A stretch of DNA of 64,000 bases from Methanosarcinales archaeon (GCA_021108405.1 JAIOQW010000140.1:631-64630); one strand, 5' to 3'. Positions 6,532 to 50,288 are shown, counted from the stretch's first letter. Numbers and translations: made by a program. Notes: generated by a model not told the origin, from the sequence alone.

Positions 6532-7167
6532 TTATGTTTTTTTTAAGGCATCTGCTATTCTTTCAGGAAGAGTATCGAGTTTTTCACTTATATCATCAAG
6601 TACACCTAATTTATTATCCATCCCACCTAGCTTATCATTCATTCCACCAAGCTTATCTTCTATTCTGTCAGGTGCACCCAATTTATCATTCATTCCACCA
6701 AGCTTATCATCCATTCTATCAAGTGCACCTAATTTATCATTCATTCCATCAAGCTTATCATCCATTCTATCAAGTGCACCTAATTTATCATTCATCCCAC
6801 TGAGTATATGAATAATCTCATGAAATAATGATGAATGTTCTGTTAATATCCCAATACCTTTATCGAACCGTTTCATATACTCCCGTATATCTTCAGTCGC
6901 AATCCTGCCGAAAGGAGATGGTAATGTAATATCTTCTTCGATCACTGTAGTTTCTATTGTAATATGCCTATGGGATGTTAGATCATTAATAAAACCTGAA
7001 ATAGATATTTCCGGGCCGCTTGCCATAATCTTGACAGAACCATCAATATCATTAAAAACAAATCCATCTAAACCATTAGCTCTTCCATAAGTTTCTACTA
7101 TATCCCTATATCCTACCATTTGAATATTATTTCTTATGGATAAAAAGATGTTTTTTATATTTGTCAT
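6532..7167 (-). CDS. Acylphosphatase-like domain protein with C-terminal DKLG-type tandem repeats
   Basis: The N-terminal ~90 aa (VGYRDIVETYGRANGLDGFVFNDIDGSVKIMASGP) is acylphosphatase-like. The C-terminal half is GMNDKLGALDRMDDKLD repeated, with a 17-aa period. Confidence 0.55.
   Translation of the reverse strand: MTNIKNIFLSIRNNIQMVGYRDIVETYGRANGLDGFVFNDIDGSVKIMASGPEISISGFINDLTSHRHITIETTVIEEDITLPSPFGRIATEDIREYMKRFDKGIGILTEHSSLFHEIIHILSGMNDKLGALDRMDDKLDGMNDKLGALDRMDDKLGGMNDKLGAPDRIEDKLGGMNDKLGGMDNKLGVLDDISEKLDTLPERIADALKKT
6598..6800 (-). repeat. In-frame tandem repeat: 51-bp (17-codon) unit, about 2.6 near-identical copies plus diverged units
   Basis: Units at 6669-6719 and 6720-6770 differ at a few positions. 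A third copy starts at 6771. More diverged 24-27 bp sub-units run from 6598 to 6668. Confidence 0.85.
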
Positions 7168-7428: not shown

Positions 7429-8130
7429 TTAACGCGAATGAAATGAGCGTTTACCACACATAACAATCAACTCATTAATACATGCCACCGCCACCGGCGT
7501 ACCCCCCCGTGTCCCTGTACAGGTAATAGATGGAATATCCAGTCCTCTCACTTTCTGTTTAGATTCGGCAGCGTTCACAAACCCGACAGGAACAGCTATT
7601 ATAAGAGCCGGTTTGATACCATATTCTACTATACGCGATATGGTAATAGCAGCAGAAGGTGCATTTCCTATAACCACAACAGCATCCTGAAGATCCTGGG
7701 CTGCGCTTAGAAATCCTGCCGATGTTCTGGTAATACCACAATCATGGGCAAGTTGTGTGGCACCACTGAGATCAAGTACACATTGTATCTTACAATCATG
7801 TCCTGTTTTGATAATACCTGTAAGCACCATCCTGATATCAGTAAACACAGGTATACCAGTAGATATTGCACGCAGTCCGGCTTCGATCGGATCATTACAA
7901 AACACTAACAGGTCTTTAAATGCCGGATCTCCGGTAGCCACCACACAGCGTTGCCGTATTTTATCCTCGGGACTGTTATCTCCGACGATCTTCCTGGCAA
8001 TTTCACGTCCTGCTTCGGCAATGGTCATAGCCTCAGGAGTTATAGCTCCGGGTTCACTGCATATGCGGACCAGTTCAGGGTCAATTTCTTTAGTATGATG
8101 TGCAGCCGCACTCAATAGATCAGTAGTCAT
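7429..8130 (-). CDS. cbiC: Cobalt-precorrin-8 methylmutase
   Basis: VVIGNAPSAAITISRIVE and overall CbiC/CobH-like sequence. It is the last gene of the cbi operon. The ORF opens at 8187, but the Met at 8130 leaves only an 11-nt overlap with cbiH. Confidence 0.8.
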   Translation of the reverse strand: MTTDLLSAAAHHTKEIDPELVRICSEPGAITPEAMTIAEAGREIARKIVGDNSPEDKIRQRCVVATGDPAFKDLLVFCNDPIEAGLRAISTGIPVFTDIRMVLTGIIKTGHDCKIQCVLDLSGATQLAHDCGITRTSAGFLSAAQDLQDAVVVIGNAPSAAITISRIVEYGIKPALIIAVPVGFVNAAESKQKVRGLDIPSITCTGTRGGTPVAVACINELIVMCGKRSFHSR

Positions 8131-8899
8131 ATTTCTTATGATACCCCCTTGGTGTGATGATCCTTGAACCCCATATCCCTGATTCACTATTGCCTATGAT
8201 TATTGTAGTTCTCATATCTACTTCATCATCATGGTCGAGAATATTTCCCAAAGTGGTCACAGTCACTGACTCACCTTCTGTGCGTAATGCATTTCTGACT
8301 ATTCCTACAGGCACGGTATCTACCCTGCTGCGGCGGATTATCTTTATGGCTTTTTGGAAATTAGTATTACGTTGCCTGCTTTTTGGGTTATAGATACCAA
8401 TGATCATATCTGCCTCTGCAGCAGCATGCAGGCGTTTCTCAATAACTTCCCATGGCGTGAGCAGGTCACTTAAGCTGATCACTGCAAAATCCGTAACAAC
8501 AGGAGCACCAAGCAGACTTGCTGCTGCACTTAAAGCTGTTATACCTGGTACGATCTCAATATCCACACTAAGATCAACCTGTCTTGCAACTTCCAGTACC
8601 AGACCTGCCATGCCATAGATATTCGAATCCCCGCCGCTGACCATTACTACCTTATTATCCACAGCAAGATCAATAGCCTTCTTAGCTCTTTCCACTTCAT
8701 GACCCATACTTGAGCGAAACACCTGTTGTGTAGATACCAGGTCTTTGATCTGGTCAAGATAAGTACCGTTACCGAGAATAATATCTGCTTCTTTGATCAC
8801 TGTATGCGCTCTTAAGGTCATGTGTTCCAAAGAACCGGGTCCGATCCCTACTACATAGAGTTTTCCATTAACGTGCGATGGCGATTGTGACATTATCAT
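8120..8899 (-). CDS. cbiH: Cobalt-factor III / cobalt-precorrin-3 C17-methyltransferase
   Basis: Tetrapyrrole methylase motifs LYVVGIGPGSLEHMTLRA and SGGDSNIYGMAGL. Operon context. Confidence 0.85.
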   Translation of the reverse strand: MIMSQSPSHVNGKLYVVGIGPGSLEHMTLRAHTVIKEADIILGNGTYLDQIKDLVSTQQVFRSSMGHEVERAKKAIDLAVDNKVVMVSGGDSNIYGMAGLVLEVARQVDLSVDIEIVPGITALSAAASLLGAPVVTDFAVISLSDLLTPWEVIEKRLHAAAEADMIIGIYNPKSRQRNTNFQKAIKIIRRSRVDTVPVGIVRNALRTEGESVTVTTLGNILDHDDEVDMRTTIIIGNSESGIWGSRIITPRGYHKKYDY

Positions 8900-9722
8900 A
8901 CACCCTTTTTTTCATAATTAGTTCATTTTCACGGCTCAGTGCCAGTGCAGCCGGTTCACTTACACCAATAAGTCCCAGTCCCAAAGCTGCTGATTCGGAT
9001 GGTGTTTCGATGGAATTGATCACCTCAGCAGGGACAAATACGATCTCTCCCTTCATTTCGGCAATAGCTTCAATGAGTCCGCTCTCATGCTGTTTGATAT
9101 CTGCAGAAGCAAACAGTTCCACATCAGTTAATTCCAGGCCGCACTCGTGAAGAGCTTGATAGACTGCATTTATTACACTACTTGAGGATATTGCGCGCCT
9201 GGTCCCTATACCTACAATAACCCCGCTTTTGTGATGAGGACCTGTTTTCTTTTTAAGAACTGATACATTACTGTTTATTATGACCACCTTTGGTCCGTGT
9301 ATCTCGATCACTGGCAGGTCTGAATTAAGAAGACAGGTATTTATTGCTCTGGTAGATTCCTTATTCACTATCTCACAGTCCAGTGCCTGTGCTATACCTT
9401 CAACGCAGGGGCGGCCCATAACTTCAGTAGCTGTGGTTATGACAGGGCATGCCCCGGTACCTGCAAGACGCTGTGCCAGATCATTGGCACCGTGGTGACC
9501 TCCGCATAAGGCAACTGCATAGTTTAATCCTGCATCCATTACCACTACTACCGGATCAGTCCATTTATCTTCCAGCAGCGGCCCCACTTCCCGAACAGCG
9601 ATCCCGCATGCCATAACCGCTATAATGGCCTGGTATTCTAAAAAAGCTGTTTTAAAAGCTTCTTTATCATAAGGGATAAGATCTGCATCCACACATGTCC
9701 GGATTTTAAGAGCTACATCCAA
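8868..9722 (-). CDS. cbiG: Cobalt-precorrin-5A hydrolase
   Basis: CbiG-like blocks (GIGTRRAISSSSVINAV; GVSEPAALA). It lies between cbiF and cbiH. TTG start. Confidence 0.75.
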   Translation of the reverse strand: MDVALKIRTCVDADLIPYDKEAFKTAFLEYQAIIAVMACGIAVREVGPLLEDKWTDPVVVVMDAGLNYAVALCGGHHGANDLAQRLAGTGACPVITTATEVMGRPCVEGIAQALDCEIVNKESTRAINTCLLNSDLPVIEIHGPKVVIINSNVSVLKKKTGPHHKSGVIVGIGTRRAISSSSVINAVYQALHECGLELTDVELFASADIKQHESGLIEAIAEMKGEIVFVPAEVINSIETPSESAALGLGLIGVSEPAALALSRENELIMKKRVYDNVTIAIAR

Positions 9723-9739
9723 GTTATGTTCCAGATAGA

Positions 9740-10525
9740 TTATTGCGGTGCGTATAAATGAGACCTCCTGTACTCTACCGGGTCTACTACTCCACCTATA
9801 AGTATCATAGCTGATTGTGTTAATCCAGCTTCTTTGACCTTATCTGCGATATCATTAACAGTTCCTATAATGATCTTCTGGTCCTCCCATGTAGCATGGT
9901 ATACTACGGCAACAGGTGTATCAGGCGGATATTCAACCCTTTGTATGATATGTTCTATCTTATCTGTTCCGAGGAATACCGCCATAGTCGCTCCATGTCT
10001 CGACAATGCTGCCAGGTCATCTTCTGCTAAGGTCTCACCTGCAGGCCGGGTAATGATCAGAGTCTCACTTACACCCTTTAATGTCAATTGAGTACCCAGG
10101 GCTGCTGCACTACCAAATAGGGAAGATACACCTGGTACTATTTTCACTTCCACTGCGTGTTTGTCAAGTTCATTGATCTGCTCAATAATAGCACCATACA
10201 ATGACGGATCACCACTATGCAATCTAACTACTTTTTTACCCTGGTTGAGCGCATCTACCATTACGCCGGTGATATCTTCCAGACGCATTCCGAAGCTGTT
10301 GATCTTCTTGGCTTTAATGTCCTGTAATAACACAGGATTTACCAGGGAGCCGGCATATACTACCAGATCAGCGCTCTCAATAAGCCTTTGTCCTTTTACT
10401 GTGATCAGTTCAGGGTCTCCAGGACCTGCACCTACGAAATATATTTTATTATTACTACCATTCCTCACATTTTTAACAATATTTGCATTATTTTCATTAC
10501 TATTATTCACGGCGCTTCCTCGCAA
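9740..10525 (-). CDS. cbiF: Cobalt-precorrin-4 C11-methyltransferase
   Basis: IYFVGAGPGDPELITVKG and HSGDPSLYGA motifs. Asn-rich N-terminal extension from a GTG start. Confidence 0.85.
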   Translation of the reverse strand: MRGSAVNNSNENNANIVKNVRNGSNNKIYFVGAGPGDPELITVKGQRLIESADLVVYAGSLVNPVLLQDIKAKKINSFGMRLEDITGVMVDALNQGKKVVRLHSGDPSLYGAIIEQINELDKHAVEVKIVPGVSSLFGSAAALGTQLTLKGVSETLIITRPAGETLAEDDLAALSRHGATMAVFLGTDKIEHIIQRVEYPPDTPVAVVYHATWEDQKIIIGTVNDIADKVKEAGLTQSAMILIGGVVDPVEYRRSHLYAPQ

Positions 10526-11120
10526 GTATTAGACTAAAATAGTCACCTTTATCAGGCATTTTTTCCTGGTCTTTAATGATCTCTTCAGTATCTGAGAATA
10601 ATCGCTGGGCAAGAATGAAATCCTCAAATCCTTTTTGGCGTAACGAGTTGATTATCTCCCGGGGCCGTCTGGCTTTTAATATGATCCTATCTGTGAGCGG
10701 ACTCCCATCACTGACCTCAAAGGAAGTATCCATCATAATGTCGGCTCTGGATGCAAAAGCAGTGATGGAACTGATGCCCGGAATGGTTGAAATGGAGATG
10801 TCGGGATGACGCTGCTGTATTATCCGGCGTAGGTGGGTAAAAGTACTGAAGAAGTTAGGGTCACCGATAAGACCGAAAGCAACCAGTCCGTCTCTTGCAG
10901 GACCGGCTACCATATCTGCATTTTTTTCCCAGTGGGATTGTAATACTGCCTGGTCTTTTGTCATAGGGAATTCAAGCATGTACGGCTGTGAATAAGGTTC
11001 TACCAGCTCTTGAGCCAGCCGGCCCGGGACAAAGACCTTGTTAGCTCGCTGTAATATATCAACTGCCTGTAATGTCAATAATCCAGGATCACCCGGACCG
11101 AGTCCAACACCAATTAACAT
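10503..11120 (-). CDS. cbiL: Cobalt-precorrin-2 C20-methyltransferase
   Basis: MLIGVGLGPGDPGLLTLQA and GDPNFFSTF, of CbiL/CobI type. Operon context. Confidence 0.8.
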   Translation of the reverse strand: MLIGVGLGPGDPGLLTLQAVDILQRANKVFVPGRLAQELVEPYSQPYMLEFPMTKDQAVLQSHWEKNADMVAGPARDGLVAFGLIGDPNFFSTFTHLRRIIQQRHPDISISTIPGISSITAFASRADIMMDTSFEVSDGSPLTDRIILKARRPREIINSLRQKGFEDFILAQRLFSDTEEIIKDQEKMPDKGDYFSLILARKRRE

Positions 11121-11121
11121 T

Positions 11122-11667
11122 TTATTTATCTCCTTTTGTATCTCCTGTGATGATGTATACAGGATTTATAGGTTTAAAAGCTATTTCACCTGCAAGTTCA
11201 TAACTGTTTGAGACCTGGACAAGTACAGCATCAACAAAGATATCCAGGTCCTGCATGAGATCTATAACAGTTGAGGCAGTTTGTATACGCACTACATTTA
11301 CTACTATCTTTCCATTTACTTTATTCACTAATGTCCGCAGCACAGACTCTATATTCCTGGTACCTCCTATAAATGCGCAATCAAGCTGCGGCAGTTCATC
11401 CAATATCGCGGGTGCTTCACCCCTGATCAATTTGATATTATTAATATTGGCATTTCTAATATTTTTTTGGGCTGCTGATATGGCCTCATAACGGGAATCA
11501 ACAGCATAAACGCACTTTGCAATCCTGGCAGTCATGATTGAAATATAAGCTGTGCCACTGCCAATATCTGTAAATACATCACCATGGGATATATTTAATT
11601 TAAAGAATGCCAGGGCTGCAATTTCCGGTTTGGTAGGTCCGCCTGATACAAGTTCCATATATATCAC
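11122..11667 (-). CDS. cbiT: Cobalt-precorrin-6B C15-methyltransferase (decarboxylating)
   Basis: GGPTKPEIAALAFFKL...DIGSGTA class I SAM-MTase of CbiT type. First gene of the operon. The Met at 11658 is an alternative start. Confidence 0.8.
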   Translation of the reverse strand: MIYMELVSGGPTKPEIAALAFFKLNISHGDVFTDIGSGTAYISIMTARIAKCVYAVDSRYEAISAAQKNIRNANINNIKLIRGEAPAILDELPQLDCAFIGGTRNIESVLRTLVNKVNGKIVVNVVRIQTASTVIDLMQDLDIFVDAVLVQVSNSYELAGEIAFKPINPVYIITGDTKGDK

Positions 11668-11761
11668 TTCTGCATATTAATGAACTATTCTCATAAAAAT
11701 GTTATGACAACACCAAATCATAATTTTTAAGTATTGAAGTTAGATTGATATCCTGACTAAT

Positions 11762-11953
11762 ATGATAGATTCGAATGGCAGGATAATCTCAATTGGAGAT
11801 AGAGTAAAATTATTGTGGAATTTTGATAATAAACATCATACCGGAAGGATTGTTGAGATTAACAAAGACAGAATTACTATCACTACTTCAGGTACCAGGA
11901 TGTCTACATCTGATCCATCAAGAATAACTAAGATACAAAAGTCACTCATATAA
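11762..11953 (+). CDS. Small hypothetical protein (63 aa)
   Basis: ORF only. Divergent from cbiT. No recognisable motif. Confidence 0.3.
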   Translation: MIDSNGRIISIGDRVKLLWNFDNKHHTGRIVEINKDRITITTSGTRMSTSDPSRITKIQKSLI

Positions 11954-12013
11954 CCCTCATACTTGGAAACTTTATTACACATTAAACCAATGTGTGAATG
12001 AAGTGAGCATGAT

Positions 12014-12457
12014 ATGAATACTGAAATAGGATGGGTAATGATAATACTCGGGTTCTGTTTTCTGGCAGCTGAGGCATTACACCCTGGATTCTTCATAGCT
12101 GTACCCGGTACGGTATTACTGGTGATGGGTGCAATATTTATTTTGCTTCCCGGTGTGTTTGAACAGTGGAGTCCTATTATCATGGTAGTCACGGCTATAG
12201 TGGCCAGTATCGGGACTATTATGATATATCGCAGGATTGCTCCCGGACAAAAACCATTTACTACCAGTATGGATACCCTGGCAGGTAAAAAGGGTATTGT
12301 AACCATCGATATCGACCCTGGTTCCATCTCAGGTAAAGTGAGAATCGATAATCAGATATGGAGTGCCACATCAGATACCTCAATTTTGACAGGGACAGCT
12401 ATCGAGGTAACAGAATCCGAAGGTGTCCATGTGAAGGTTGTTGAAATGGTTGAATAA
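12014..12457 (+). CDS. NfeD-family membrane protein
   Basis: Three N-terminal TM segments plus a C-terminal OB-like tail (GKVRIDNQIWSATS). It lies immediately upstream of an SPFH gene, which is the classic NfeD-stomatin pairing. Confidence 0.75.
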   Translation: MNTEIGWVMIILGFCFLAAEALHPGFFIAVPGTVLLVMGAIFILLPGVFEQWSPIIMVVTAIVASIGTIMIYRRIAPGQKPFTTSMDTLAGKKGIVTIDIDPGSISGKVRIDNQIWSATSDTSILTGTAIEVTESEGVHVKVVEMVE

Positions 12458-33495: not shown

Positions 33496-34365
33496 ATGAG
33501 GTTTTGTAGAAAGCCTCAAAATGGATATAAAGTATATAAGTGTCCGAAATGTGAAACAAAGAAGTACGTATCTTTCACTTGTAAGACTCGTCTATGTACA
33601 TCATGTGGAACAAAATCGGCTAATGAATTTGCAGATAAAATTTATCATAGACTTCTAAGAGTCCCACACAGGCATGTTGTTTTTACTATTCCTGACAGGT
33701 TAAGGGAGACTTTCAAGATTTCTGATCATCAGAAAATTCTCTTTGAGGCAGCAAAAGTAACAATGGGAGATATGATCCAGTTTTCAAATAAAAAAAGCAA
33801 GAGAAAAATAAAGTTGAAAATTGGCATGATTCAGTTTCTGCAAACATTTGGTGCAGATATGAAATATAATCATCATATTCATAGCATTGTTACTGAAGGT
33901 GGTTTTGATAGAAATGGGAACTGGATTCATGTACATTTTATACACTATAAAGGATGGAGGAAAAAGTGGCAATATGAATTACTGACAAGGCTGAAAAAAG
34001 AAATGCCAAGATGCAAAGAGACAAATAAGTTCATAGACTTGCAATTTAAAAAATATCCAAATGGATTTGTAATTTACGGTAAAAGAAGATTTGAAAAAAG
34101 AGATGGGTGGAATATGGCAAGGTATATTGGTAGATATGTTAAGCATCCACCAATAGCCGAATCAAGAATAAAAGCCTATGATGGAAAACATGTAATATTC
34201 TGGTATAAAGACACTGAAACCAAAAGGAAGATAACTGTAACAATGGATAAAATTGAGTTTGTGCGATTACTGCTAAGTCACATACCAGTAAAATATTTTA
34301 GAACTGTTAGGTACTATGGTGTCTATTCAAGAAGAGGATACAAGCATAGAAATGGTTGTACTTAA
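33496..34365 (+). CDS. IS91-family-like rolling-circle (HUH, Y2) transposase, probably C-terminally truncated or frameshifted
   Basis: Zn-binding N-terminus CPKCETKKYVSFTCKTRLCTSCG. VPHRHVVFTIPDRLR. HUH motif NHHIHSIVTEGGF. RYIGRYVKHPPIAESRI. Tyrosine motif RTVRYYGVYSRR. An open +1 frame continues to about 34470. Confidence 0.75.
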   Translation: MRFCRKPQNGYKVYKCPKCETKKYVSFTCKTRLCTSCGTKSANEFADKIYHRLLRVPHRHVVFTIPDRLRETFKISDHQKILFEAAKVTMGDMIQFSNKKSKRKIKLKIGMIQFLQTFGADMKYNHHIHSIVTEGGFDRNGNWIHVHFIHYKGWRKKWQYELLTRLKKEMPRCKETNKFIDLQFKKYPNGFVIYGKRRFEKRDGWNMARYIGRYVKHPPIAESRIKAYDGKHVIFWYKDTETKRKITVTMDKIEFVRLLLSHIPVKYFRTVRYYGVYSRRGYKHRNGCT

Positions 34366-40624: not shown

Positions 40625-41212
40625 ATGTCTGTCGACGGTGCTAACCTGATCCTGCAGAAAAAACCGGCCTTAGCGTTGCTTGCTATTAACAGGGAAGAAG
40701 AAACCTATGCGTCCCTGATATCAAGGGAGATCGGATCTACTTTTGCACATACTGCAAATATTCTTGGTAAACTTGAAAGTGAAGGGCTGGTGCGGTTTGA
40801 GACAAGTGGTAATGATAACCGTGTAAAGAGTGTTGGTCTGACATCCAGAGGTAAAGCTACGGCTGTGCTGGTAGAGAAAATTGTTGCTGTTATGGATGAT
40901 ACTAAAACCGACAGTAAAAGAAAAACAATAGGCAAGAAGAAAGGCAAGCCAAAAAAGGATGTTAAAGGATTTGCCCAAAAGCTTGGAGTGATCAATAACA
41001 ATATCGAATTGGTCAAAAAGGAGGAACTGGGTAGCAAGAAGAGCATTTCCCAGGAGGATTTTGTACGCATTGGGCAGCGGCTCGGACCTTATCGCAGGGA
41101 GTTAAGGAAGATTATTAAGACGGGTAAGAAAGTAGAAATGAAACAAGCTGCAATATTGGATAAGAAGATAGATGATGTTCTTGGGGAAAGGGAGAGGCTA
41201 AGGGGACAGTAA
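40625..41212 (+). CDS. Winged-helix DNA-binding protein with Lys-rich C-terminal half
   Basis: ETYASLISREIGSTFAHTANILGKLESEGLVRFE is a MarR/ArsR-like wHTH. The rest is basic and low complexity. Confidence 0.5.
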   Translation: MSVDGANLILQKKPALALLAINREEETYASLISREIGSTFAHTANILGKLESEGLVRFETSGNDNRVKSVGLTSRGKATAVLVEKIVAVMDDTKTDSKRKTIGKKKGKPKKDVKGFAQKLGVINNNIELVKKEELGSKKSISQEDFVRIGQRLGPYRRELRKIIKTGKKVEMKQAAILDKKIDDVLGERERLRGQ

Positions 41213-41281: not shown

Positions 41282-42235
41282 TTATTCATTTGTCCAGTCG
41301 TTCATATCAAGTTTTATAGCGATTTTAACCTTTTCAGAAATACTTATGTTCTCAATATCTATCTTATCTAAGGCTTGCAGTCTTTTCTTTAACCCACATT
41401 GATTAGCATTTTGGATACTTAACCCTGGTCGGGCATTCAGTTCAAGCACAAGCGGTCCGACTTTGTTATCGATAGCTATGTCAACACCAAGATATCCGAG
41501 TCCTACTGCACAAAATGATTTAGTAGCCATTGTAAGAATATCATCCCAGAAAGGTATCTCAACCCCGACCAGAGAAGATCCCGTATCCGGGTGTGAATAT
41601 ACAGATCGGTCCTTACAGATTGCATGGACTGTCTTTCCTTCTGATATTTTAATTCCTGCCCCCAATGCTCCTTTATGGAGATTTGCTTTACCAGAAGACT
41701 CTTTTGTAGGTAATCGAACCATTGCCATTACTGGTATACCTTTATATACTATGATCCTGACATCAGGTACTCCCTCAAAAGAGACTTTCTCAAGAGATGA
41801 ATGAGATATAATTAAAGACTCTAAAAAGACCGTACTTGGGCTACCATCAATAGAATATACACCTTCAAGTATTTCCAGACAATGTTTTTGGATCTCTTTG
41901 AGAGTTATTAACTTACCGTTTGCCATTACCCAGTTATCTTCTACTCTACCCTTGATCACTACTATGCCTCTTCCACCTGCACCTACTGAAGGTTTTATTA
42001 CAAATTTGTCTGTTGTTAGTGATTTATCAAGATTTTTAAGTTCATGCACTTCCTTAAAAACACTATACACTTCAGAAAACGGAATGTTAAAATCCTTAAG
42101 AAGGTCTTTTGTCACGAGTTTATCATCTACTAAATTGAGCAATTTTCTCGGGTTTTTCGGGAAGATGAAACTAATGTTACGTTCATTTATTCCGATTATT
42201 TCCCTTTTATTACTGAATAATCCATATATGATCAT
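41282..42235 (-). CDS. Alpha-L-glutamate ligase-related ATP-grasp protein (RimK-related)
   Basis: GINERNISFIFPKNPRKLLNLVDDKLVTKDLL, FEGVPDVRIIVYKGIPVMAMVRLPTKESSGKANLHKGALGAGI, LGYLGVDIAID...PLVLELNARPGLSIQ. Confidence 0.8.
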   Translation of the reverse strand: MIIYGLFSNKREIIGINERNISFIFPKNPRKLLNLVDDKLVTKDLLKDFNIPFSEVYSVFKEVHELKNLDKSLTTDKFVIKPSVGAGGRGIVVIKGRVEDNWVMANGKLITLKEIQKHCLEILEGVYSIDGSPSTVFLESLIISHSSLEKVSFEGVPDVRIIVYKGIPVMAMVRLPTKESSGKANLHKGALGAGIKISEGKTVHAICKDRSVYSHPDTGSSLVGVEIPFWDDILTMATKSFCAVGLGYLGVDIAIDNKVGPLVLELNARPGLSIQNANQCGLKKRLQALDKIDIENISISEKVKIAIKLDMNDWTNE

Positions 42236-42239
42236 ACAT

Positions 42240-42866
42240 TTAACCTTTCATAACCCTGGAAAACCTGAAATACTCCACCATACGCAACCCTTTCCATCTT
42301 CCAAGAAGTATATTAAACCCTACAACCAGAAAGAGGATTTCCGGATGGGTCATAACAACTGCCTGAAGAGTGGGTTGGGAAATCACCAAAAAACAAATAA
42401 GTGAAACAAATAGTGTACCTAAACTGATTTTAAGAGCATCCCGAATTCCCTTCTCTACTGTAGTTTTCATAAAGTTCTCTATAATGATGGACATTATTAT
42501 TAATGGAAAAACAGTAATTGTCGCAAGTGATTGGTTGCCTGTTTTAATTCCGATTGTTATTAAAGCTGCTATTATTATACAGCACAATGTCAGCAATACA
42601 GCCAGTCTGGGTACCAACATGAGATTCAGGCGTTCAATATATTTTCGTACGAAAACACCTGTTATCAATAAAACGCCGAACAGGATCAAGCCTATAATCA
42701 AGCCGGAACTTAGAAAAGCTATTGACATTATAGCAGGTCCGAAAACACCATATGTTTGTAATCCGATAACATTTCTAAAAATAGCCACAATTGTAGCTGC
42801 AAACGGTAAAATAAGAATAAGTTTTAGAGTTTCAAGTGGAATATTTGATTCTGATACTTTTATCAT
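42240..42866 (-). CDS. Multi-TM protein, likely the 7TM module that partners RimK-related ATP-grasp ligases
   Basis: 208 aa with 6-7 hydrophobic helices. It lies 4 nt upstream of the ATP-grasp gene on the same strand. The family assignment comes from context and topology only. Confidence 0.5.
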   Translation of the reverse strand: MIKVSESNIPLETLKLILILPFAATIVAIFRNVIGLQTYGVFGPAIMSIAFLSSGLIIGLILFGVLLITGVFVRKYIERLNLMLVPRLAVLLTLCCIIIAALITIGIKTGNQSLATITVFPLIIMSIIIENFMKTTVEKGIRDALKISLGTLFVSLICFLVISQPTLQAVVMTHPEILFLVVGFNILLGRWKGLRMVEYFRFSRVMKG

Positions 42867-42919
42867 TGTATCGACTTTTACTTTTTCATAGTTATGAATA
42901 GTCTCCAGGTCTTCATCAT

Positions 42920-43705
42920 CTACTGTTGAAAATTTAATATTTTTTTATCCAGTATTTCTGTGACAGGGTTCTTCTGTATGGAAGATGTAAGTATTGCATC
43001 CCATACAAGATCAGAATCTTTTAAATCTGTTATAATAAGGTATTCCGGAGAAGCTGCCTTTTGTAAGATTAAGGCATGCTGCTTTAACACTTTTTCTCCT
43101 ATATCACTTGAAATGATTATTTTTTTATCATTCAATGAACCATATGAAGTTACATAGTCTATTATAACATTCAATCCTGTTATATCTTTTGAGAATATTA
43201 CAATATATTCAATATCTATAGTATCATCCGGAAACGTACCCGGGAAATATTTTGAGTCATAATCAATTCTTTTTTCAAGTACTGGTATCCCAACTGCTGT
43301 GGCATAATTTCCCATTAGTCTTACAAGATTATATTTAACCGAGTTATCATAAATTATCAGCATAGAGCTCATATTAGATTCTTCTGTGCTCTCTGGTTTA
43401 TTATCATCTATATCGCTATCTGATCCGGTGTCATCATCTTCATCACTGTCTACATCATCTGCTTCGCTATCTGATTCACTGTCATCATCTACACCGCTAT
43501 CTGTATCATCATCGTCATCCACATCGCTGTCTGACTCACTGTTATCATCTACATCACTGTCTGGTTCATCGTTGTCATCTCCATCACTATCTGACTCTGC
43601 TTGAGATATTTCTAGGTTTGTTAACGCTAGCAACCCACCAGTCAGAAGAATTGTGATAATCACTAATATGACCCTTATTCTCATATGTTCTAATTCCTTT
43701 TCCAT
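42920..43705 (-). CDS. Signal-anchored protein with ~70-aa Asp/Ser-rich repeat region and C-terminal globular domain
   Basis: N-terminal TM VILVIITILLTGGLLAL, six DSDxDDxxxx-type decamers, then about 150 aa of ordinary sequence. It is the first gene of the three-gene minus-strand cluster. Confidence 0.6.
   Translation of the reverse strand: MEKELEHMRIRVILVIITILLTGGLLALTNLEISQAESDSDGDDNDEPDSDVDDNSESDSDVDDDDDTDSGVDDDSESDSEADDVDSDEDDDTGSDSDIDDNKPESTEESNMSSMLIIYDNSVKYNLVRLMGNYATAVGIPVLEKRIDYDSKYFPGTFPDDTIDIEYIVIFSKDITGLNVIIDYVTSYGSLNDKKIIISSDIGEKVLKQHALILQKAASPEYLIITDLKDSDLVWDAILTSSIQKNPVTEILDKKILNFQQ
43390..43600 (-). repeat. In-frame ~30-bp periodic repeat encoding DSD(V/G/I)DD decamers
   Basis: The protein reads DSDGDDNDEP DSDVDDNSES DSDVDDDDDT DSGVDDDSES DSEADDV... 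DSDIDDNKPE. The shadow ORF on the opposite strand is correspondingly repetitive. Confidence 0.8.
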
Positions 43706-43711
43706 TATTTT

Positions 43712-43876
43712 TAGTATATCAAGTATAACTTGATATATCGAAAATGCTCACTCTGTTCACATTTTCTAATCTTCAGCTCTTTTATGAGCCTCGCTCGAAG
43801 ATTCTATGAATCTTCTAATCCTCCATTCCTCTGGAATGTCGGTCAAGAAAATCCTCCAGACGGGTAGATTTTGTTC
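43712..43876 (-). repeat. Full-length mosaic element in reverse orientation (F-E-D-C-B-A on the plus strand)
   Basis: TAGTATATCAAGTATAACTTGATATA; GAAAATGC-TCACTCTGTTC-ACATTTTC; D-like; GAAGATTC-TAT-GAATCTTC; CTCCATTCCTCTGGAATGTCGG; diverged A ending GATTTTGTTC. Confidence 0.85.
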
Positions 43877-46676: not shown

Positions 46677-46835
46677 AAATAAAATCCTCGCTAGCGCTCG
46701 GATTTTATTGACCGACATTCCAGAGAAATGGAGGATTAGAAGATTCGTAGAATCTTCGCCAGAGGCTCTTAAAAGAGCCGAAGAGTAGAAAATGTGAACG
46801 GAGTGAGCATTTTCGATATAGTTGTACTTAATACT
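46676..46835 (+). repeat. Full-length mosaic element A-B-C-D-E-(degenerate F)
   Basis: It starts at the ilvE stop codon and ends at the HNH gene ATG. Modules are as in 45219, except that B (CATTCC-AGA-GAAATG) replaces B'. Confidence 0.9.
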
Positions 46836-47264
46836 ATGAAAAAGACTAATATTAAAAGGACCATACAGTACCGCCGTAAGATCCAGCTTCTTACACAGTT
46901 GTTCAATAAAAGAAAAACTGAGCTATCAGCGGGATATCAGGGGTATCACGAACTTAAAGGGTTTGTGGATGAGTGTGAGCACTGGGGCATAATGGACCGC
47001 GGCCAGGAAAAGGCACTGGATGAGTGGATAGATTTTCTTAACCGCTGGCCTTTTGCAGGAGGAACAACGAAGAGTGCTTTAACACCATACCAGCGAAATA
47101 AGGCGATGGGGAAGCAACAGTTTATATGTACTATGTGCGGCAGGCCTGCAGAAGAGGTGCATCATATAATCCCAAGATCAAAGGGCGGTCGGAATACTTC
47201 TGGTAATCTTACTATATTGTGCAGGGAGTGTCATGAAAAAATTCATAAAAAAAAGAAAAAGTAG
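46836..47264 (+). CDS. Stand-alone HNH endonuclease
   Basis: CTMCGRPAEEVHHIIPRSKGGRNTSGNLTILCRECHEKIH. I did not recognise the N-terminal ~90 aa. The track start at 46794 lies inside the repeat, so the ATG at 46836 is preferred. Confidence 0.75.
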   Translation: MKKTNIKRTIQYRRKIQLLTQLFNKRKTELSAGYQGYHELKGFVDECEHWGIMDRGQEKALDEWIDFLNRWPFAGGTTKSALTPYQRNKAMGKQQFICTMCGRPAEEVHHIIPRSKGGRNTSGNLTILCRECHEKIHKKKKK

Positions 47265-47301: not shown

Positions 47302-48387
47302 CTAACCTCTGATTAATAGTTCCATTTCCGACATTGGTATTACACTCATTACGGCTTTATTGCTCAATACAGAATCATCACCGAGGGTCTTCTTAACATA
47401 TATGTCATAGTTGCCTGGTGATTCCGACACATTGAATGTAATCTCATTATCAGATACAGTCGTAGGAATTATTTCTTTATCACCGACAAGTACTGTAACA
47501 TCCGGAGATGCATCATCCTGGGCGCTGGTGAAATCGATACCTATGATTGTAGCAATATTACCTTCCTCAACTGGGTTAGTAATATTATAAATAGTGGGAG
47601 CGATTAGATCTCCACCGGGTGAATCACCCAATATAGATAATGCAGACGTTAGAGCATTTGTACTTGATGCAACACCATAGAGGTCATACCATCCGTGGCA
47701 TCCCCAGCAATCCCAATTACTACCAATATGGCCGTATCCATCCATACCTTCGGTATTATTATAGTCGTACTGGATAATGTGGAGTGACCTAACACCATGA
47801 CAGTCTTCGCATTTTCTTATATCCAGCATTCCACCATCTCCAGAGTGACAGAGGTTACAATCAAGACCTGTTCCATGGTGAGTAGCTTGATTTGAGTGAA
47901 TATTATCTCCACCTGGTTCATGGCAAGCTTCACAACCACCGATCTTTAATGAACCGGATTGATTATTGAAACTTGTACTAGGAGTTACTAATGATGGTTC
48001 ATACGTTGGGATTGCATGTCCGTCATTATAATCATCAATGATACTACCGTGACAATCAGTACATATTCTATCAATTGCAGCCTGAGTTACGTGATGAGGT
48101 GAGCTGTGGTGACATGCCAGACAGTCCCTGGTAAATTCGAGACCCTGATCATTAATATCATGACATTGCGTACATGTATAACCTTCTCCAATTAACAAAT
48201 GGTGTCTGTCTACAAGGCCGGAACTATGACATTCTCTACATTCAGGTTCTGTAAATTCACCAAATGCAGTATCAGGCAGCCCAACATTTTGATCTACCGG
48301 TGGTGGTGGAATATCAGCAAAAGCTATACTGATGACCATCAACATAGCTACAACACTTGTAAAATAGACTAGTCTACTATATTTCAA
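47302..48387 (-). CDS. Octaheme c-type cytochrome with N-terminal signal/anchor and C-terminal IPT/TIG-like domain
   Basis: Eight CxxCH motifs: CRECH, CTQCH, CLACH, CTDCH, CEACH, CNLCH, CEDCH, CWGCH. The N-terminus is hydrophobic. The C-terminal ~100 aa looks like a beta-sandwich. Confidence 0.9.
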   Translation of the reverse strand: MKYSRLVYFTSVVAMLMVISIAFADIPPPPVDQNVGLPDTAFGEFTEPECRECHSSGLVDRHHLLIGEGYTCTQCHDINDQGLEFTRDCLACHHSSPHHVTQAAIDRICTDCHGSIIDDYNDGHAIPTYEPSLVTPSTSFNNQSGSLKIGGCEACHEPGGDNIHSNQATHHGTGLDCNLCHSGDGGMLDIRKCEDCHGVRSLHIIQYDYNNTEGMDGYGHIGSNWDCWGCHGWYDLYGVASSTNALTSALSILGDSPGGDLIAPTIYNITNPVEEGNIATIIGIDFTSAQDDASPDVTVLVGDKEIIPTTVSDNEITFNVSESPGNYDIYVKKTLGDDSVLSNKAVMSVIPMSEMELLIRG

Positions 48388-48464: not shown

Positions 48465-50288
48465 TTATTTATTTCTGTAGTTAATTGTGATAAAAAACAC
48501 TATTAAACTTAATATCAGACAGAAACTCGGAATACCTTCCTGACTCTGTGTAGATGTATGTTCCGGTGTCTCTTCAATTGTTTGTTGTGGTGTTTGTTCT
48601 ACCATGCCTTCTCCACCAGCCTCGTCTGCAGCTACCTGCTTACCAGTAACTGCAAATGAAGCAAAACCAGCGGTATTGGATGTAAAGTATAGTTTATCAT
48701 CATCCTTGGTTGTCAGAGTAGTAGTAAGCTCTTCCCAGCTTCCACTATTGTACCGGTTCATGACAATAGTCGTTTCGTCAATATCATTCTCAGTGACCCA
48801 TGATTTTTCTACATAGAATTCTATTATGGGATCATCCATGTTCTGTGAAGTAGCCCATCCTTTATTCCCAAGCCAGATATTCAGGTTTTTATAAATATAA
48901 TCAGGTGGGACAGTATCAACAAGTGTTGAAGTATTCTTAAGTATCTCCACTTTTGCTGCAACTGTTCCTGAATTGGTCAGACCGGTGAAATTAATATATC
49001 GAATTATATTTCCTTCTGAATTAAAAGAATAACTTACTTTAGTATTCTTGTTAACAGATTCTCTTTGTATTTCTTTGATATCAATATTTTGAAATGCTTC
49101 ACCGGAGCTGCCTCCGCCACCACCGCTACCGCCACTGCCACCACCGTTATTGCTGTTATCAATCTGTATCTCATCATTATTTATAACTGTTATTTGATAG
49201 AAGTTCGTATAATTCGATGTAGTCGCAGTTACGTTAATTACATTATTACCAGATACTAATGAGACTAACATTGAATATTTCCAGAGTGGACTTTCACCCT
49301 GAACAGTAGCATTCTCTCCATTAACTGTTACTGTTGGAGTTGAATTTGTCCTCACCCAACCTGTAACATTAATGGGACTTGTATCTACAGTTTTATTATC
49401 CTCATGGGAAGTGATATTGATAGAAATGGGTATTGACTCTAGAATTTTAACGCCCACTTTGTCGCTAATTGTATTACCTGAAGTATCATTAGCATAGATG
49501 ATATAGTCCCACTCTCCCAGAGTCGTGGAATCTATCGGGACCTGGATATCCTCACCGCTTTGATAATTTGTAGGAGGTTGAATAAGAGTACTGTTTATTG
49601 TGTTATTCTTATATACCCAATATTTATTTTCATTACCAGGACTAGCAGTTATAGTCCATGTTATATTCTTTTTGACTTCCTTTTCTATTTCAATATCACG
49701 TGGATGAGTAATTTCCAGTAACGCGGTACTGGATGATACGTTTTCAGATTCGATAGTAAAGTTTAATACCCATATGTCTGACCCGTTTTCAGCATCATCA
49801 TAAATTATATTATCATAAGTGTCAGTTCTGATCATTTGAATATTATCAACACAGAACCCTTCTCCAAATTCCGAATCATATGTCCTGTAAATAAAACCAA
49901 TATATTTTGTCCCGATTTTTTTTGTCAAATCCACCGGCAATTCTCGTGACCAATCTTGTTTATTTCCAGTATATTCCAGTGAAGGCAATGAAAATAAACT
50001 CTTCATGTCATCAGACCAGAAAAAATGAGCGTGATCACCCGGCCCAATATCATATTTAGTAGAATAAAATAATTTTACTGAGGTGCAGTCCTGCCAATCT
50101 ACTTCTGTATACATAATATTCCAAATATTAGTTCCAGTCCCTGAGTAATAATAATGGTTCAATTCATCCGGATCATCATCTCCGGCTACTGGTGAAATAA
50201 ATAACCCGGCCAATAGGCAGATCATTAGAAATATAGATCCAATTCTTTTTTTCAATTCATTACCTCCTGATTTCCACAAATATATCAA
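48465..50288 (-). CDS. Large secreted surface protein with Gly/Ser linker, PGF-pre-PGF domain and PGF-CTERM-like anchor (PSF variant)
   Basis: Signal peptide. NNGGGSGGSGGGGGSSGE linker. PGF-pre-PGF-like block (YKNLNIWLGNKGW...IEFYVEKSWVTENDID...NRYNSGSWEELTT...GFASFAVTG). Thr/Gln/Glu linker, then GIPSFCLILSLIVFFITINYRNK. Confidence 0.75.
   Translation of the reverse strand: MIYLWKSGGNELKKRIGSIFLMICLLAGLFISPVAGDDDPDELNHYYYSGTGTNIWNIMYTEVDWQDCTSVKLFYSTKYDIGPGDHAHFFWSDDMKSLFSLPSLEYTGNKQDWSRELPVDLTKKIGTKYIGFIYRTYDSEFGEGFCVDNIQMIRTDTYDNIIYDDAENGSDIWVLNFTIESENVSSSTALLEITHPRDIEIEKEVKKNITWTITASPGNENKYWVYKNNTINSTLIQPPTNYQSGEDIQVPIDSTTLGEWDYIIYANDTSGNTISDKVGVKILESIPISINITSHEDNKTVDTSPINVTGWVRTNSTPTVTVNGENATVQGESPLWKYSMLVSLVSGNNVINVTATTSNYTNFYQITVINNDEIQIDNSNNGGGSGGSGGGGGSSGEAFQNIDIKEIQRESVNKNTKVSYSFNSEGNIIRYINFTGLTNSGTVAAKVEILKNTSTLVDTVPPDYIYKNLNIWLGNKGWATSQNMDDPIIEFYVEKSWVTENDIDETTIVMNRYNSGSWEELTTTLTTKDDDKLYFTSNTAGFASFAVTGKQVAADEAGGEGMVEQTPQQTIEETPEHTSTQSQEGIPSFCLILSLIVFFITINYRNK

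Follow-up and report, generated by a model that had tools for sequence, protein, structure and literature searches.

The DNA analysed here is a stretch of 64,000 nucleotides (nt) from a Methanosarcinales archaeon (GCA_021108405.1, JAIOQW010000140.1:631-64630), called the window in the following. Between positions 41282 and 43705 it carries three open reading frames (ORFs) on the minus strand that encode, in the direction of transcription, an acidic protein of 261 amino acids (aa; 42920-43705), a protein with seven transmembrane helices (7TM; 208 aa, 42240-42866) and an ATP-grasp ligase (317 aa, 41282-42235). Our analysis indicates that this locus is probably an archaeal derivative of the bacterial rloBC genes in which rloA is missing, the ectodomain of the B component has been exchanged, the B gene has become two genes and the ligase would act on the cytoplasmic side of its 7TM partner. 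It is a variant of the rloBC-type module and not a new system. An earlier note on this DNA, written from the sequence alone, had described a three-gene cluster, and all three ORFs are indeed present. The stop codon of the 7TM gene and the start codon of the ligase gene are separated by only 4 nt (TAA-atgt-ATG).

The bacterial system has been studied in Pseudomonas aeruginosa, where one operon, rloABC, encodes the secreted retropepsin-like protease RloA, the inactive transglutaminase/7TM protein RloB and the ATP-grasp protein RloC (Lormand et al., mBio 2025, PMC12239564). In this bacterium, the only one for which such phenotypes are known, hypo-osmotic tolerance, biofilm formation, resistance to cell wall antibiotics and normal cell shape depend on three RloA paralogues together. 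RloA cuts runs of at least eight glutamates, and the defects of a strain lacking all three paralogues, lethality included, are suppressed when either rloB or rloC is deleted (PMC12239564). The physiological substrate of RloA is probably a poly-glutamate peptide or a polyglutamylated protein rather than a genome-encoded sequence, and the whole set is thought to derive from the RimK-RimB logic of a glutamate ligase combined with a poly-glutamate protease (PMC12239564). The statement in the earlier note that the function of the bacterial system is still unknown thus holds for the biochemistry of RloB and RloC, but not for the phenotypes and the genetic logic of rloABC.

A scan of species-representative genomes with the ligase from the window as query retrieved 29 loci, all of them bacterial, with ligases 36-49% identical to the query. 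In 23 of these 29 loci, a gene for a protein of 140-270 aa is followed by one for 495-545 aa and one for 300-360 aa, i.e., the genes stand in the order A-B-C, just as expected from the earlier description of the bacterial family as residing beside an inactive-transglutaminase/7TM protein and a small protease gene. One of the bacterial B proteins carries PF14400 (residues 24-184) followed by PF14402 (residues 260-505).

The assignment of the 317-aa protein to the ATP-grasp family named in the earlier note is firm, since its score against TIGR02291 (321.9 bits) exceeds the curated NCBIfam cutoff of 314.2. The name of this model is graded 'hypoth_equivalog', and L-glutamate ligation is the activity that the family name implies. 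The protein also matches PF14397 (1e-75) and reaches 399 bits against a hidden Markov model (HMM) built from 23 bacterial RloC sequences. It retains 75 of the 80 columns that are at least 95% conserved among these 23 proteins, including the glycine-rich loop K81-P82-x2-G85-x2-G88-x-G90, the motif D158-x-R160 and the motif E265-x-N267-x-R269-P270-G271. The ligase gene follows directly 3' of a PF14402 7TM gene in the window, in all archaeal loci for which downstream sequence is available and in the 23 bacterial loci. By these measures, the 317-aa protein is an orthologue of bacterial RloC. It shares the ATP-grasp fold and the C-terminal motifs of the RimK type (PF08443, 1.1e-8) with RimK, the poly-alpha-L-glutamate ligase for ribosomal protein S6 that works together with the trimming protease RimB, but with 50.1 bits it remains below the cutoff of the RimK family model TIGR00768 (143.4), no protease accompanies it, and RimK has no membrane partner. 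A sequence search of the PDB with the ligase returned solely an irrelevant match of the biotin carboxylase type (E ~ 1e-3).

The earlier proposal that the 208-aa gene corresponds to the 7TM module of the transglutaminase/7TM partner is equally well founded. The protein aligns with positions 46-246 of the 248 positions of PF14402 (7TM_transglut) with an E-value of 7.8e-45. It also matches NF052267 ('osmotic stress tolerance membrane protein RloB') with 133.4 bits and covers positions 307-507 of this NCBIfam model, which is 508 positions long; the curated cutoff of 900, which applies to the whole protein, is not reached. An HMM made from 23 bacterial RloB proteins yields 175 bits on the 7TM part (positions 274-510). 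By profile, the 208-aa protein is therefore the PF14402 7TM half of RloB, i.e., approximately its C-terminal half. Positions that are invariant in archaea and bacteria include P47, R57, G61, G66, P70, P147, E156, R227 and F228 (alignment numbering), and a basic C-terminal helix with the motif GRWKGLRxxEYFRF is conserved. An AlphaFold2 (AF2) model of the linker plus the 7TM region, built from an alignment of 10 sequences, comprises a low-confidence linker helix, seven transmembrane helices and a C-terminal helix rich in lysine and arginine (predicted local distance difference test score, pLDDT, 70; predicted template modelling score, pTM, 0.63). In this model and on inspection of the sequence, the lysine/arginine-rich segments RKYIERLNLMLVPR and KTTVEKGIRDALK and the tail GRWKGLRMVEYFRFSRVMKG lie on one side of the 7TM domain. 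This arrangement fits a topology with the N-terminus outside and the C-terminus inside, which would place the ectodomain outside the cell. Self-glutamylation of the 7TM C-terminus in the style of RimK and S6 was considered and rejected: the termini read ...MKG, ...IKG or ...MED, bacterial tails are variable, and the ends are neither glutamate-terminated nor conserved; in the window the protein ends in ...MKG, not in Glu-Glu as in S6.

The relationship between the acidic protein and the 7TM protein became apparent from homologues of the latter. Four proteins that are 72-76% identical to the 208-aa protein (P0004-P0007) are longer and possess an N-terminal extension consisting of a linker of about 25 residues and a domain, termed domain X here, that is also present in the acidic protein. 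When 1.84 billion representative proteins were searched exhaustively by HMMER for domain X, eight matched, and in three of these the domain is fused to PF14402; word-index protein searches had returned just two and five proteins, and it was the exhaustive HMMER search that yielded the fused homologues. These three proteins (P0012, P0013 and P0014 with 605, 520 and 544 aa, respectively) each consist of a signal peptide, an acidic tract, domain X, the linker and PF14402. Scanning metagenomes with the domain X profile added 11 loci, some on contigs already in the set, and uninterrupted fused ORFs of 504-536 aa are present in four of them (L038, L039, L040 and L043). Wherever the contig reaches that far, the ligase gene lies directly 3' of the fused or domain X gene. 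This comparison shows that the acidic gene and the 7TM gene each represent one half of a single ancestral gene, which in seven relatives is still fused and encodes 500-605 aa.

Traces of the former fusion are preserved in the window. The 7TM frame is open for 26 codons 5' of the 7TM ATG, and these codons (42867-42944, minus strand) encode KNIKFSTVDDEDLETIHNYEKVKVDT, which aligns without gaps with the linkers of P0012 and P0013 and corresponds to positions 274-300 of the RloB HMM; today this region is divided between the 3' end of the acidic gene and a spacer of 53 nt. The ORFs of the two halves use different frames and meet, according to frame analysis, at a run of seven A residues (A7) at 42940-42946 on the minus strand (T7 on the plus strand). 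Adding a single A to this run produces an ORF of 481 aa without internal stop that is collinear with P0012 and P0013 and reads ILDKKNIKFSTVDDEDLE across the restored junction, while the 7TM protein would begin with MIKVSESNIPLETLK if started at its own ATG. The loss of one base from an A8 run in the inter-domain linker would thus have split the fused gene in the lineage of the window, giving rise to a 254-aa exported acidic protein and a 208-aa 7TM protein that would both still be functional. As the same A7 is found in four independent assemblies (the window/ERZ26872896, SRR15668623, JGI 3300024173 and SRR7181950), which represent two lineages with 88% identity in domain X, it is not an assembly error. 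The earlier note had taken the separate 208-aa 7TM gene for the archaeal arrangement; instead, it arose when a fused gene broke at the A7 run in this particular lineage. In line with the expectation that the three genes are conserved together, a second organism (L001) has the same triad.

The fission appears to be tolerated. Comparison of the window with L001/L037 gives ratios of nonsynonymous to synonymous substitution rates (dN/dS) of 0.29 in domain X, 0.12 in the 7TM domain and 0.14 in the ligase; the corresponding values among the fused lineages are 0.22-0.32 (domain X) and 0.10-0.16 (7TM domain). To judge from these ratios, both halves and the ligase are under purifying selection, and the detached ectodomain is as constrained as those that are still attached (0.29 as compared to 0.22-0.32). 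A second split is documented in three samples (L004, L005 and L006), in which an in-frame TGA in the linker is followed four codons later by an ATG; it lies a few residues upstream of the position of the A7 break in the same linker, and the TGA replaces a methionine codon (L004, 1286-1288). That the gene was broken twice independently at the domain boundary, with complete ORFs remaining each time, speaks for a fission that is tolerated and against decay. One further interruption, a TGA in place of the arginine codon AGA in the middle of domain X (L003, 2805-2807), occurs on one contig from one sample. The TGA codons of these relatives may be subject to readthrough, be tolerated as a split or be inactivating. 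The contigs of LGVF01 (L043, 2955-3459, as well as L042 and L044) have frameshifts even within the conserved ligase gene; these look like assembly errors, and interruptions confined to this assembly should not be taken as biological.

The first half of the split gene encodes a protein that is composed of an export signal, a polyanionic tract and domain X. Translation likely starts at the second ATG (43684), since L001, a relative with 88% identity, does not have the first one; the resulting length of 254 aa agrees with P0001, the gene call in the database. The segment from this ATG onwards (MRIRVILVIITILLTGGLLALTNLEISQA, followed by E; 43598-43684, minus strand) is a probable Sec signal peptide, and the cleavage site of the relatives is of the canonical AxA type. 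The call is based on the -3/-1 rule, with SQA/ESD in the window and AHA/DSD in most members of the clade, and the N-terminus therefore looks like a cleavable signal peptide and not like the signal anchor that had been assumed in the earlier note. If the signal peptide is cleaved, the ectodomain of the split lineages would be a free exported protein.

Residues 37-110 (43376-43597, minus strand) form a tract rich in aspartate, serine and glutamate, whose DNA consists of imperfect 30/60-nt tandem repeats. A stretch of 85 residues that spans it contains 49% D+E and 25% S+T and has a net charge of -41. Every member of the archaeal clade has such a tract (61-211 aa, 28-49% D+E, net charge -17 to -83), and its length differs even between the window and L001, whereas the 23 bacterial RloB proteins lack it and have at most 11 D/E residues in any window of 40 residues. 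A partial copy of the first-strand motif of domain X is embedded in the acidic tracts of L040 (~6790-6840), L043, L044 and L046 (VSIPLIYDNSVSGEDTD as compared to SILLIHDSSVSGEDV) and in P0013 at residues ~85-105, which suggests that the tract grew by duplications that took in the N-terminal edge of domain X.

Domain X itself is a predicted extracytoplasmic alpha/beta domain of about 145 aa (residues ~111-253 of the 261-aa ORF; 42947-43375, minus strand). A segment of ~150 aa comprising the domain has no match in Pfam or NCBIfam, and the weak matches of the 261-aa protein as a whole are to SD-repeat regions of staphylococcal adhesins and are driven by composition. Its AF2 model, based on six sequences, shows a three-layer beta-alpha-beta arrangement (pLDDT 71.8, pTM 0.72), for which Foldseek found weak generic matches to flavodoxin-like, phosphoribosyltransferase and receiver structures in the PDB (E >= 3.5e-3, TM-score <= 0.52). 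An identity of domain X as a transglutaminase was rejected. PF14400 does not match the 261-aa protein at E <= 1 or the fused homologues at E <= 0.1, while it detects a bacterial RloB (L008) that served as positive control with 2.4e-41; the HMM of the 23 bacterial RloB proteins aligns with the archaeal proteins just from position ~250 on, i.e., in the 7TM part; hhalign assigns a probability of 0.24% to a relationship between domain X and the N-terminal region of RloB; and no transglutaminase or papain-like fold is among the top 50 Foldseek matches listed. The comparison with transglutaminase folds that the earlier note had proposed therefore points to a flavodoxin-like alpha/beta fold and revealed no relation. 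Of the three roles that had been offered there for the acidic protein, a counterpart of the inactive transglutaminase module fits best: it occupies the same position and is fused N-terminally to the 7TM domain in relatives, but it is not homologous. Judged by position and profile, domain X takes the place of the transglutaminase module without being related to it. A role as ligase substrate is topologically awkward and is disfavoured because the tract is exported while the ligase is cytoplasmic.

The absence of a protease gene from the cluster, already noticed earlier, extends well beyond it. A six-frame search with an HMM of 23 bacterial RloA sequences gave a best E-value of 2.5 in the 64-kb window and loci L001-L007 and no match at E <= 1e-3 in the 11 related loci L037-L047, and no other protease family was found among the neighbours of the module in the window, L001, L003, L004, L039 and L040. 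The general picture is that the archaeal loci share with rloABC the 7TM family (PF14402), a ligase that is 40-48% identical to bacterial RloC, the tightly coupled order of B followed by C, and an ancestral B protein in which a signal for export at the N-terminus was followed by an ectodomain and then by the 7TM domain. They differ from it in that RloA is lacking in the window and in the related loci, that a polyanionic tract plus an unrelated alpha/beta domain replace PF14400, that the B gene is split in two in the lineage of the window, and that the host is an archaeon without peptidoglycan or outer membrane; for the latter reason, the cell wall antibiotic and cell shape phenotypes of P. aeruginosa are not directly transferable.

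An even simpler arrangement exists in bacteria. P0011 is a 237-aa 7TM protein without ectodomain whose gene is directly followed by a ligase gene, with no adjacent rloA. Like the archaeal proteins, it has no transglutaminase domain and a ligase (here of the ATPgrasp_ST type) as its immediate neighbour; it differs by an extra N-terminal transmembrane helix, by the lack of a separate ectodomain gene, by its low sequence similarity (34% identity) and its bacterial origin, and its locus continues with a gene for a methyltransferase/ATP-grasp fusion that has no equivalent in the archaeal loci. Because such pairs without ectodomain exist, the minimal unit appears to consist of the 7TM domain and the ligase. 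The P0011 contig (ENA ERZ1426844, 11.6 kb) encodes the 237-aa 7TM protein, a 297-aa ATPgrasp_ST ligase and a 642-aa fusion of a methyltransferase with an ATP-grasp domain of the D-Ala-D-Ala ligase type, and it also bears genes for a sigma-54 activator and LpxD.

With regard to its origin, the module fits a single acquisition of rloBC from bacteria with subsequent replacement of the ectodomain, because an unrooted neighbour-joining tree places all archaeal ligases in a single clade within the bacterial ones, no archaeal genome is among the 29 matching species-representative genomes, the G+C content of the module (0.30-0.39) is lower than that of its flanks (0.41-0.51) and neighbouring genes vary from lineage to lineage (window, L001, L003, L004, L039 and L040 compared). 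Sequence identity is 67-93% among the archaeal ligases, 40-48% between archaeal and bacterial ligases and 39-99% among the bacterial ligases. The recipients would be a narrow group of uncultured, probably marine, euryarchaea.

How the module might work can be sketched from the genetics of P. aeruginosa combined with the predicted topology. The ligase would work on the cytoplasmic side of the 7TM protein, with the conserved basic C-terminal helix as its probable docking site, and would use ATP to form alpha-peptide bonds, most likely with glutamate. By exporting or presenting the product, the 7TM protein would couple the ligase to the outer face of the membrane, where the acidic ectodomain would act; in the archaeal variant, this outer face would be equipped with a genome-encoded polyanion and a different globular domain and would do without a dedicated trimming enzyme. 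Export or presentation is suggested because the periplasmic poly-glutamate protease of the bacteria is needed only when RloB and RloC are present. Several points weigh against this reading. Substrate and direction of coupling are guesses, with no biochemical activity known for any RloC or RloB. The ectodomain is exchanged or absent (a transglutaminase domain in bacteria, domain X here, none in P0011), and a swappable ectodomain is the pattern expected of a receptor with exchangeable sensor domains. A transporter role of the 7TM protein is without support from its fold, because a structural comparison of the model with the PDB gave no significant neighbour (best E = 0.55). The models of domain X and of the 7TM protein are of moderate confidence (pLDDT ~70, shallow alignments), and the single acquisition is read from an unrooted tree and one pattern-based genome scan.

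The modularity of the ectodomain fits an outside-in receptor, the main competing reading, equally well as export. Such a receptor would bind an external ligand or cation through its ectodomain, and the 7TM protein would switch the ligase onto a cytoplasmic target, as RimK acts on S6, without any export. A 7TM domain and ligase that stay conserved while the ectodomain is swapped or lost across lineages, an invariant basic C-terminal helix and cytoplasmic loops suited as a docking or signalling surface, and the missing transporter-like match for the 7TM model all agree with this idea, and the polyanionic tract would suit the sensing of divalent cations. What renders the receptor rather unlikely in our view is that the protease antagonizing RloB and RloC in P. 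aeruginosa is periplasmic and specific for poly-glutamate, such that the product of the ligase apparently reaches the periplasm (PMC12239564); that the conserved membrane-embedded proline, glycine and glutamate residues (P47, P70, P147, E156 and E164) look more transporter-like is a weaker point. It is very unlikely that the locus is instead a decaying remnant, an acquired rloBC copy on its way to pseudogenization that has been inactivated by the frameshift and in-frame stops. While three kinds of interruption in about five lineages (the A7 frameshift, the linker TGA in L004-L006 and the TGA within domain X in L003) and the missing partner protease could be taken as signs of degeneration, the dN/dS values of all three parts (0.12-0.29) are no higher in split than in intact lineages, both well-supported splits lie in the linker between the domains, with each resulting ORF complete and equipped with a start codon, the ligase keeps 75 of 80 highly conserved positions, the TGA within the domain is confined to a single contig of one sample, and the LGVF01 frameshifts strike the ligase gene as well and look like assembly errors.

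Acidic spacers rich in serine, aspartate and threonine are common in archaeal surface proteins. The acidic protein might be an unrelated secreted or surface protein, for instance an adhesin or a spacer associated with the S-layer, that lies next to the 7TM/ligase pair by chance; it has no family assignment, and its matches to staphylococcal SD repeats are driven by composition. On the other hand, at least seven relatives have domain X covalently joined to the 7TM domain, no other architecture turned up in the exhaustive search, and the domain X gene is always followed by the ligase gene; because of the fusions, a chance neighbourhood is effectively refuted and must be regarded as extremely improbable. 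The derivative of rloBC stays the preferred reading.

Plain fission is more likely than recoding. According to the latter, the two ORFs would in part be expressed as an RloB-like fusion, because the ribosome slips by -1 at the A7 run or an additional A is inserted there during transcription, alongside the short acidic protein. An extra A or a -1 shift does yield a perfect 481-aa fusion, and the linker frame 5' of the 7TM ATG is open in both lineages available, still resembles the linkers of the fused proteins and contains no ATG, GTG or TTG upstream of 42866. Moreover, the 80 nt from 42867 to 42946 are 93.8% identical to L001, like coding sequence (92.5-94.4%), while the flanking intergenic regions are 79.7% and 60.7% identical; the 53-nt spacer differs from L001 at 4 positions as compared to 14 differences in 69 nt of downstream intergenic DNA and a synonymous rate (dS) of 0.13-0.23 in the genes, and its four substitutions are, in the 7TM frame, two synonymous and two conservative changes. 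A precedent for archaeal -1 frameshifting on an A-run is fucA1 of Sulfolobus solfataricus, which slips at A-AAA-AAT and resembles our case in having two ORFs, a -1 shift on an A-run that is necessary for the full-length protein, and intact single-ORF homologues elsewhere (PMC1616953). The locus in the window departs from this example in that the heptamer is out of register, the same 12-mer occurs in frame elsewhere, no stimulatory structure is apparent and the downstream ORF has its own ATG; frameshifting at the A7 run is a candidate mechanism.

Recoding is considered unlikely on several grounds. In the zero frame the A7 run is read as GAU-AAA-AAA-AUA (U-AAA-AAA-A) and does not form a canonical X-XXY-YYZ heptamer; upon slippage, re-pairing in the A-site would be perfect and the P-site would face UAA. 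The 12-mer GATAAAAAAATA at this site recurs 180 nt upstream within domain X, where it must be read in frame (D-K-K-I). This upstream in-frame A7 run (43120-43126, minus strand, with the 12-mer starting at 43129) provides an internal control for any claim of slippage. No stimulatory RNA structure is predicted 3' of the A7 run (minimum free energy -11.3 kcal/mol, z = -0.46 as compared to shuffled sequences), and the argument from conservation comes down to four substitutions between two sequences. A run of seven A residues is short for efficient transcriptional slippage. In the L004 lineage, the same split was reached by a stop codon and a nearby ATG, which suggests that separate polypeptides work. 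A more far-reaching version of the idea, in which slippage at the A7 run yields both a free polyanionic ectodomain and a full-length RloB-like protein and the encoded Asp/Glu/Ser polyanion replaces enzymatically formed poly-glutamate, appears decidedly doubtful. If it were true, it would explain why the poly-glutamate-trimming RloA is dispensable in the archaeal clade, and it would point to the display of a tethered polyanion outside the membrane as the core function of Rlo systems.

Irrespective of how the halves are expressed, the derivative of rloBC outlined above bears on the bacterial system. Genetics in P. aeruginosa place RloB and RloC upstream of a periplasmic poly-glutamate protease, and the archaeal clade represents a natural experiment in which the core of 7TM protein and ligase has remained constrained, the protease is gone and the ectodomain has been swapped for a different domain that carries an encoded polyanion. 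Two lineages indicate that the ectodomain and the membrane part can be separated while constraint persists. Taken together, these features mark out the ligase and a 7TM domain with the basic C-terminal helix as the minimal conserved unit and the ectodomain as a modular part. They also provide a second, independent link between polyanions and the outer side of the system. At the same time, the locus would be a case of horizontal transfer of a bacterial envelope stress module into archaea and offers a testable candidate for gene fission or recoding at a homopolymer.

Just 5' of the start of the acidic protein, in an A/T-rich stretch, lies an inverted repeat (43715-43737, minus strand) with perfect 10-bp arms (tatatcaagt and acttgatata) and a 3-nt loop (tat). 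Its arms are kept in L001, where the wider intergenic region is 61% identical, and it may be a candidate operator overlapping the promoter. On the other side of the module, a gene for a MarR-like protein with a winged helix-turn-helix (40625-41212) is a conserved convergent neighbour.

That the window is archaeal, as the earlier note had held, is evident from other genes, among them those for the large subunit of replication factor C (640 bits, cutoff 442), digeranylgeranylglyceryl-phosphate synthase (321.6 bits, cutoff 296) and a PGF-pre-PGF protein. The latter, a surface protein of 607 aa (48465-50288, minus strand), adjoins a c-type cytochrome that has several haems and a TIG/IPT domain (47302-48387, minus strand). 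A pairing of cytochrome and PGF-pre-PGF protein is typical of Methanosarcinales and ANME-type archaea capable of extracellular electron transfer. No tRNA genes and no Rfam families at the gathering threshold were detected in the 64-kb window. A small stand-alone HNH endonuclease gene (46794-47264, plus strand; PF01844, 2.6e-13) is situated between an ORF resembling branched-chain aminotransferases and the cytochrome gene. Further away, a transposase of the IS91 family is encoded at 33496-34365 on the plus strand (NF033538, 238 bits, cutoff 125), and a run of genes for anaerobic cobalamin biosynthesis (7429-12327, minus strand) comprises those for cobalt-precorrin-8 methylmutase, CbiG, CbiF and CbiL.

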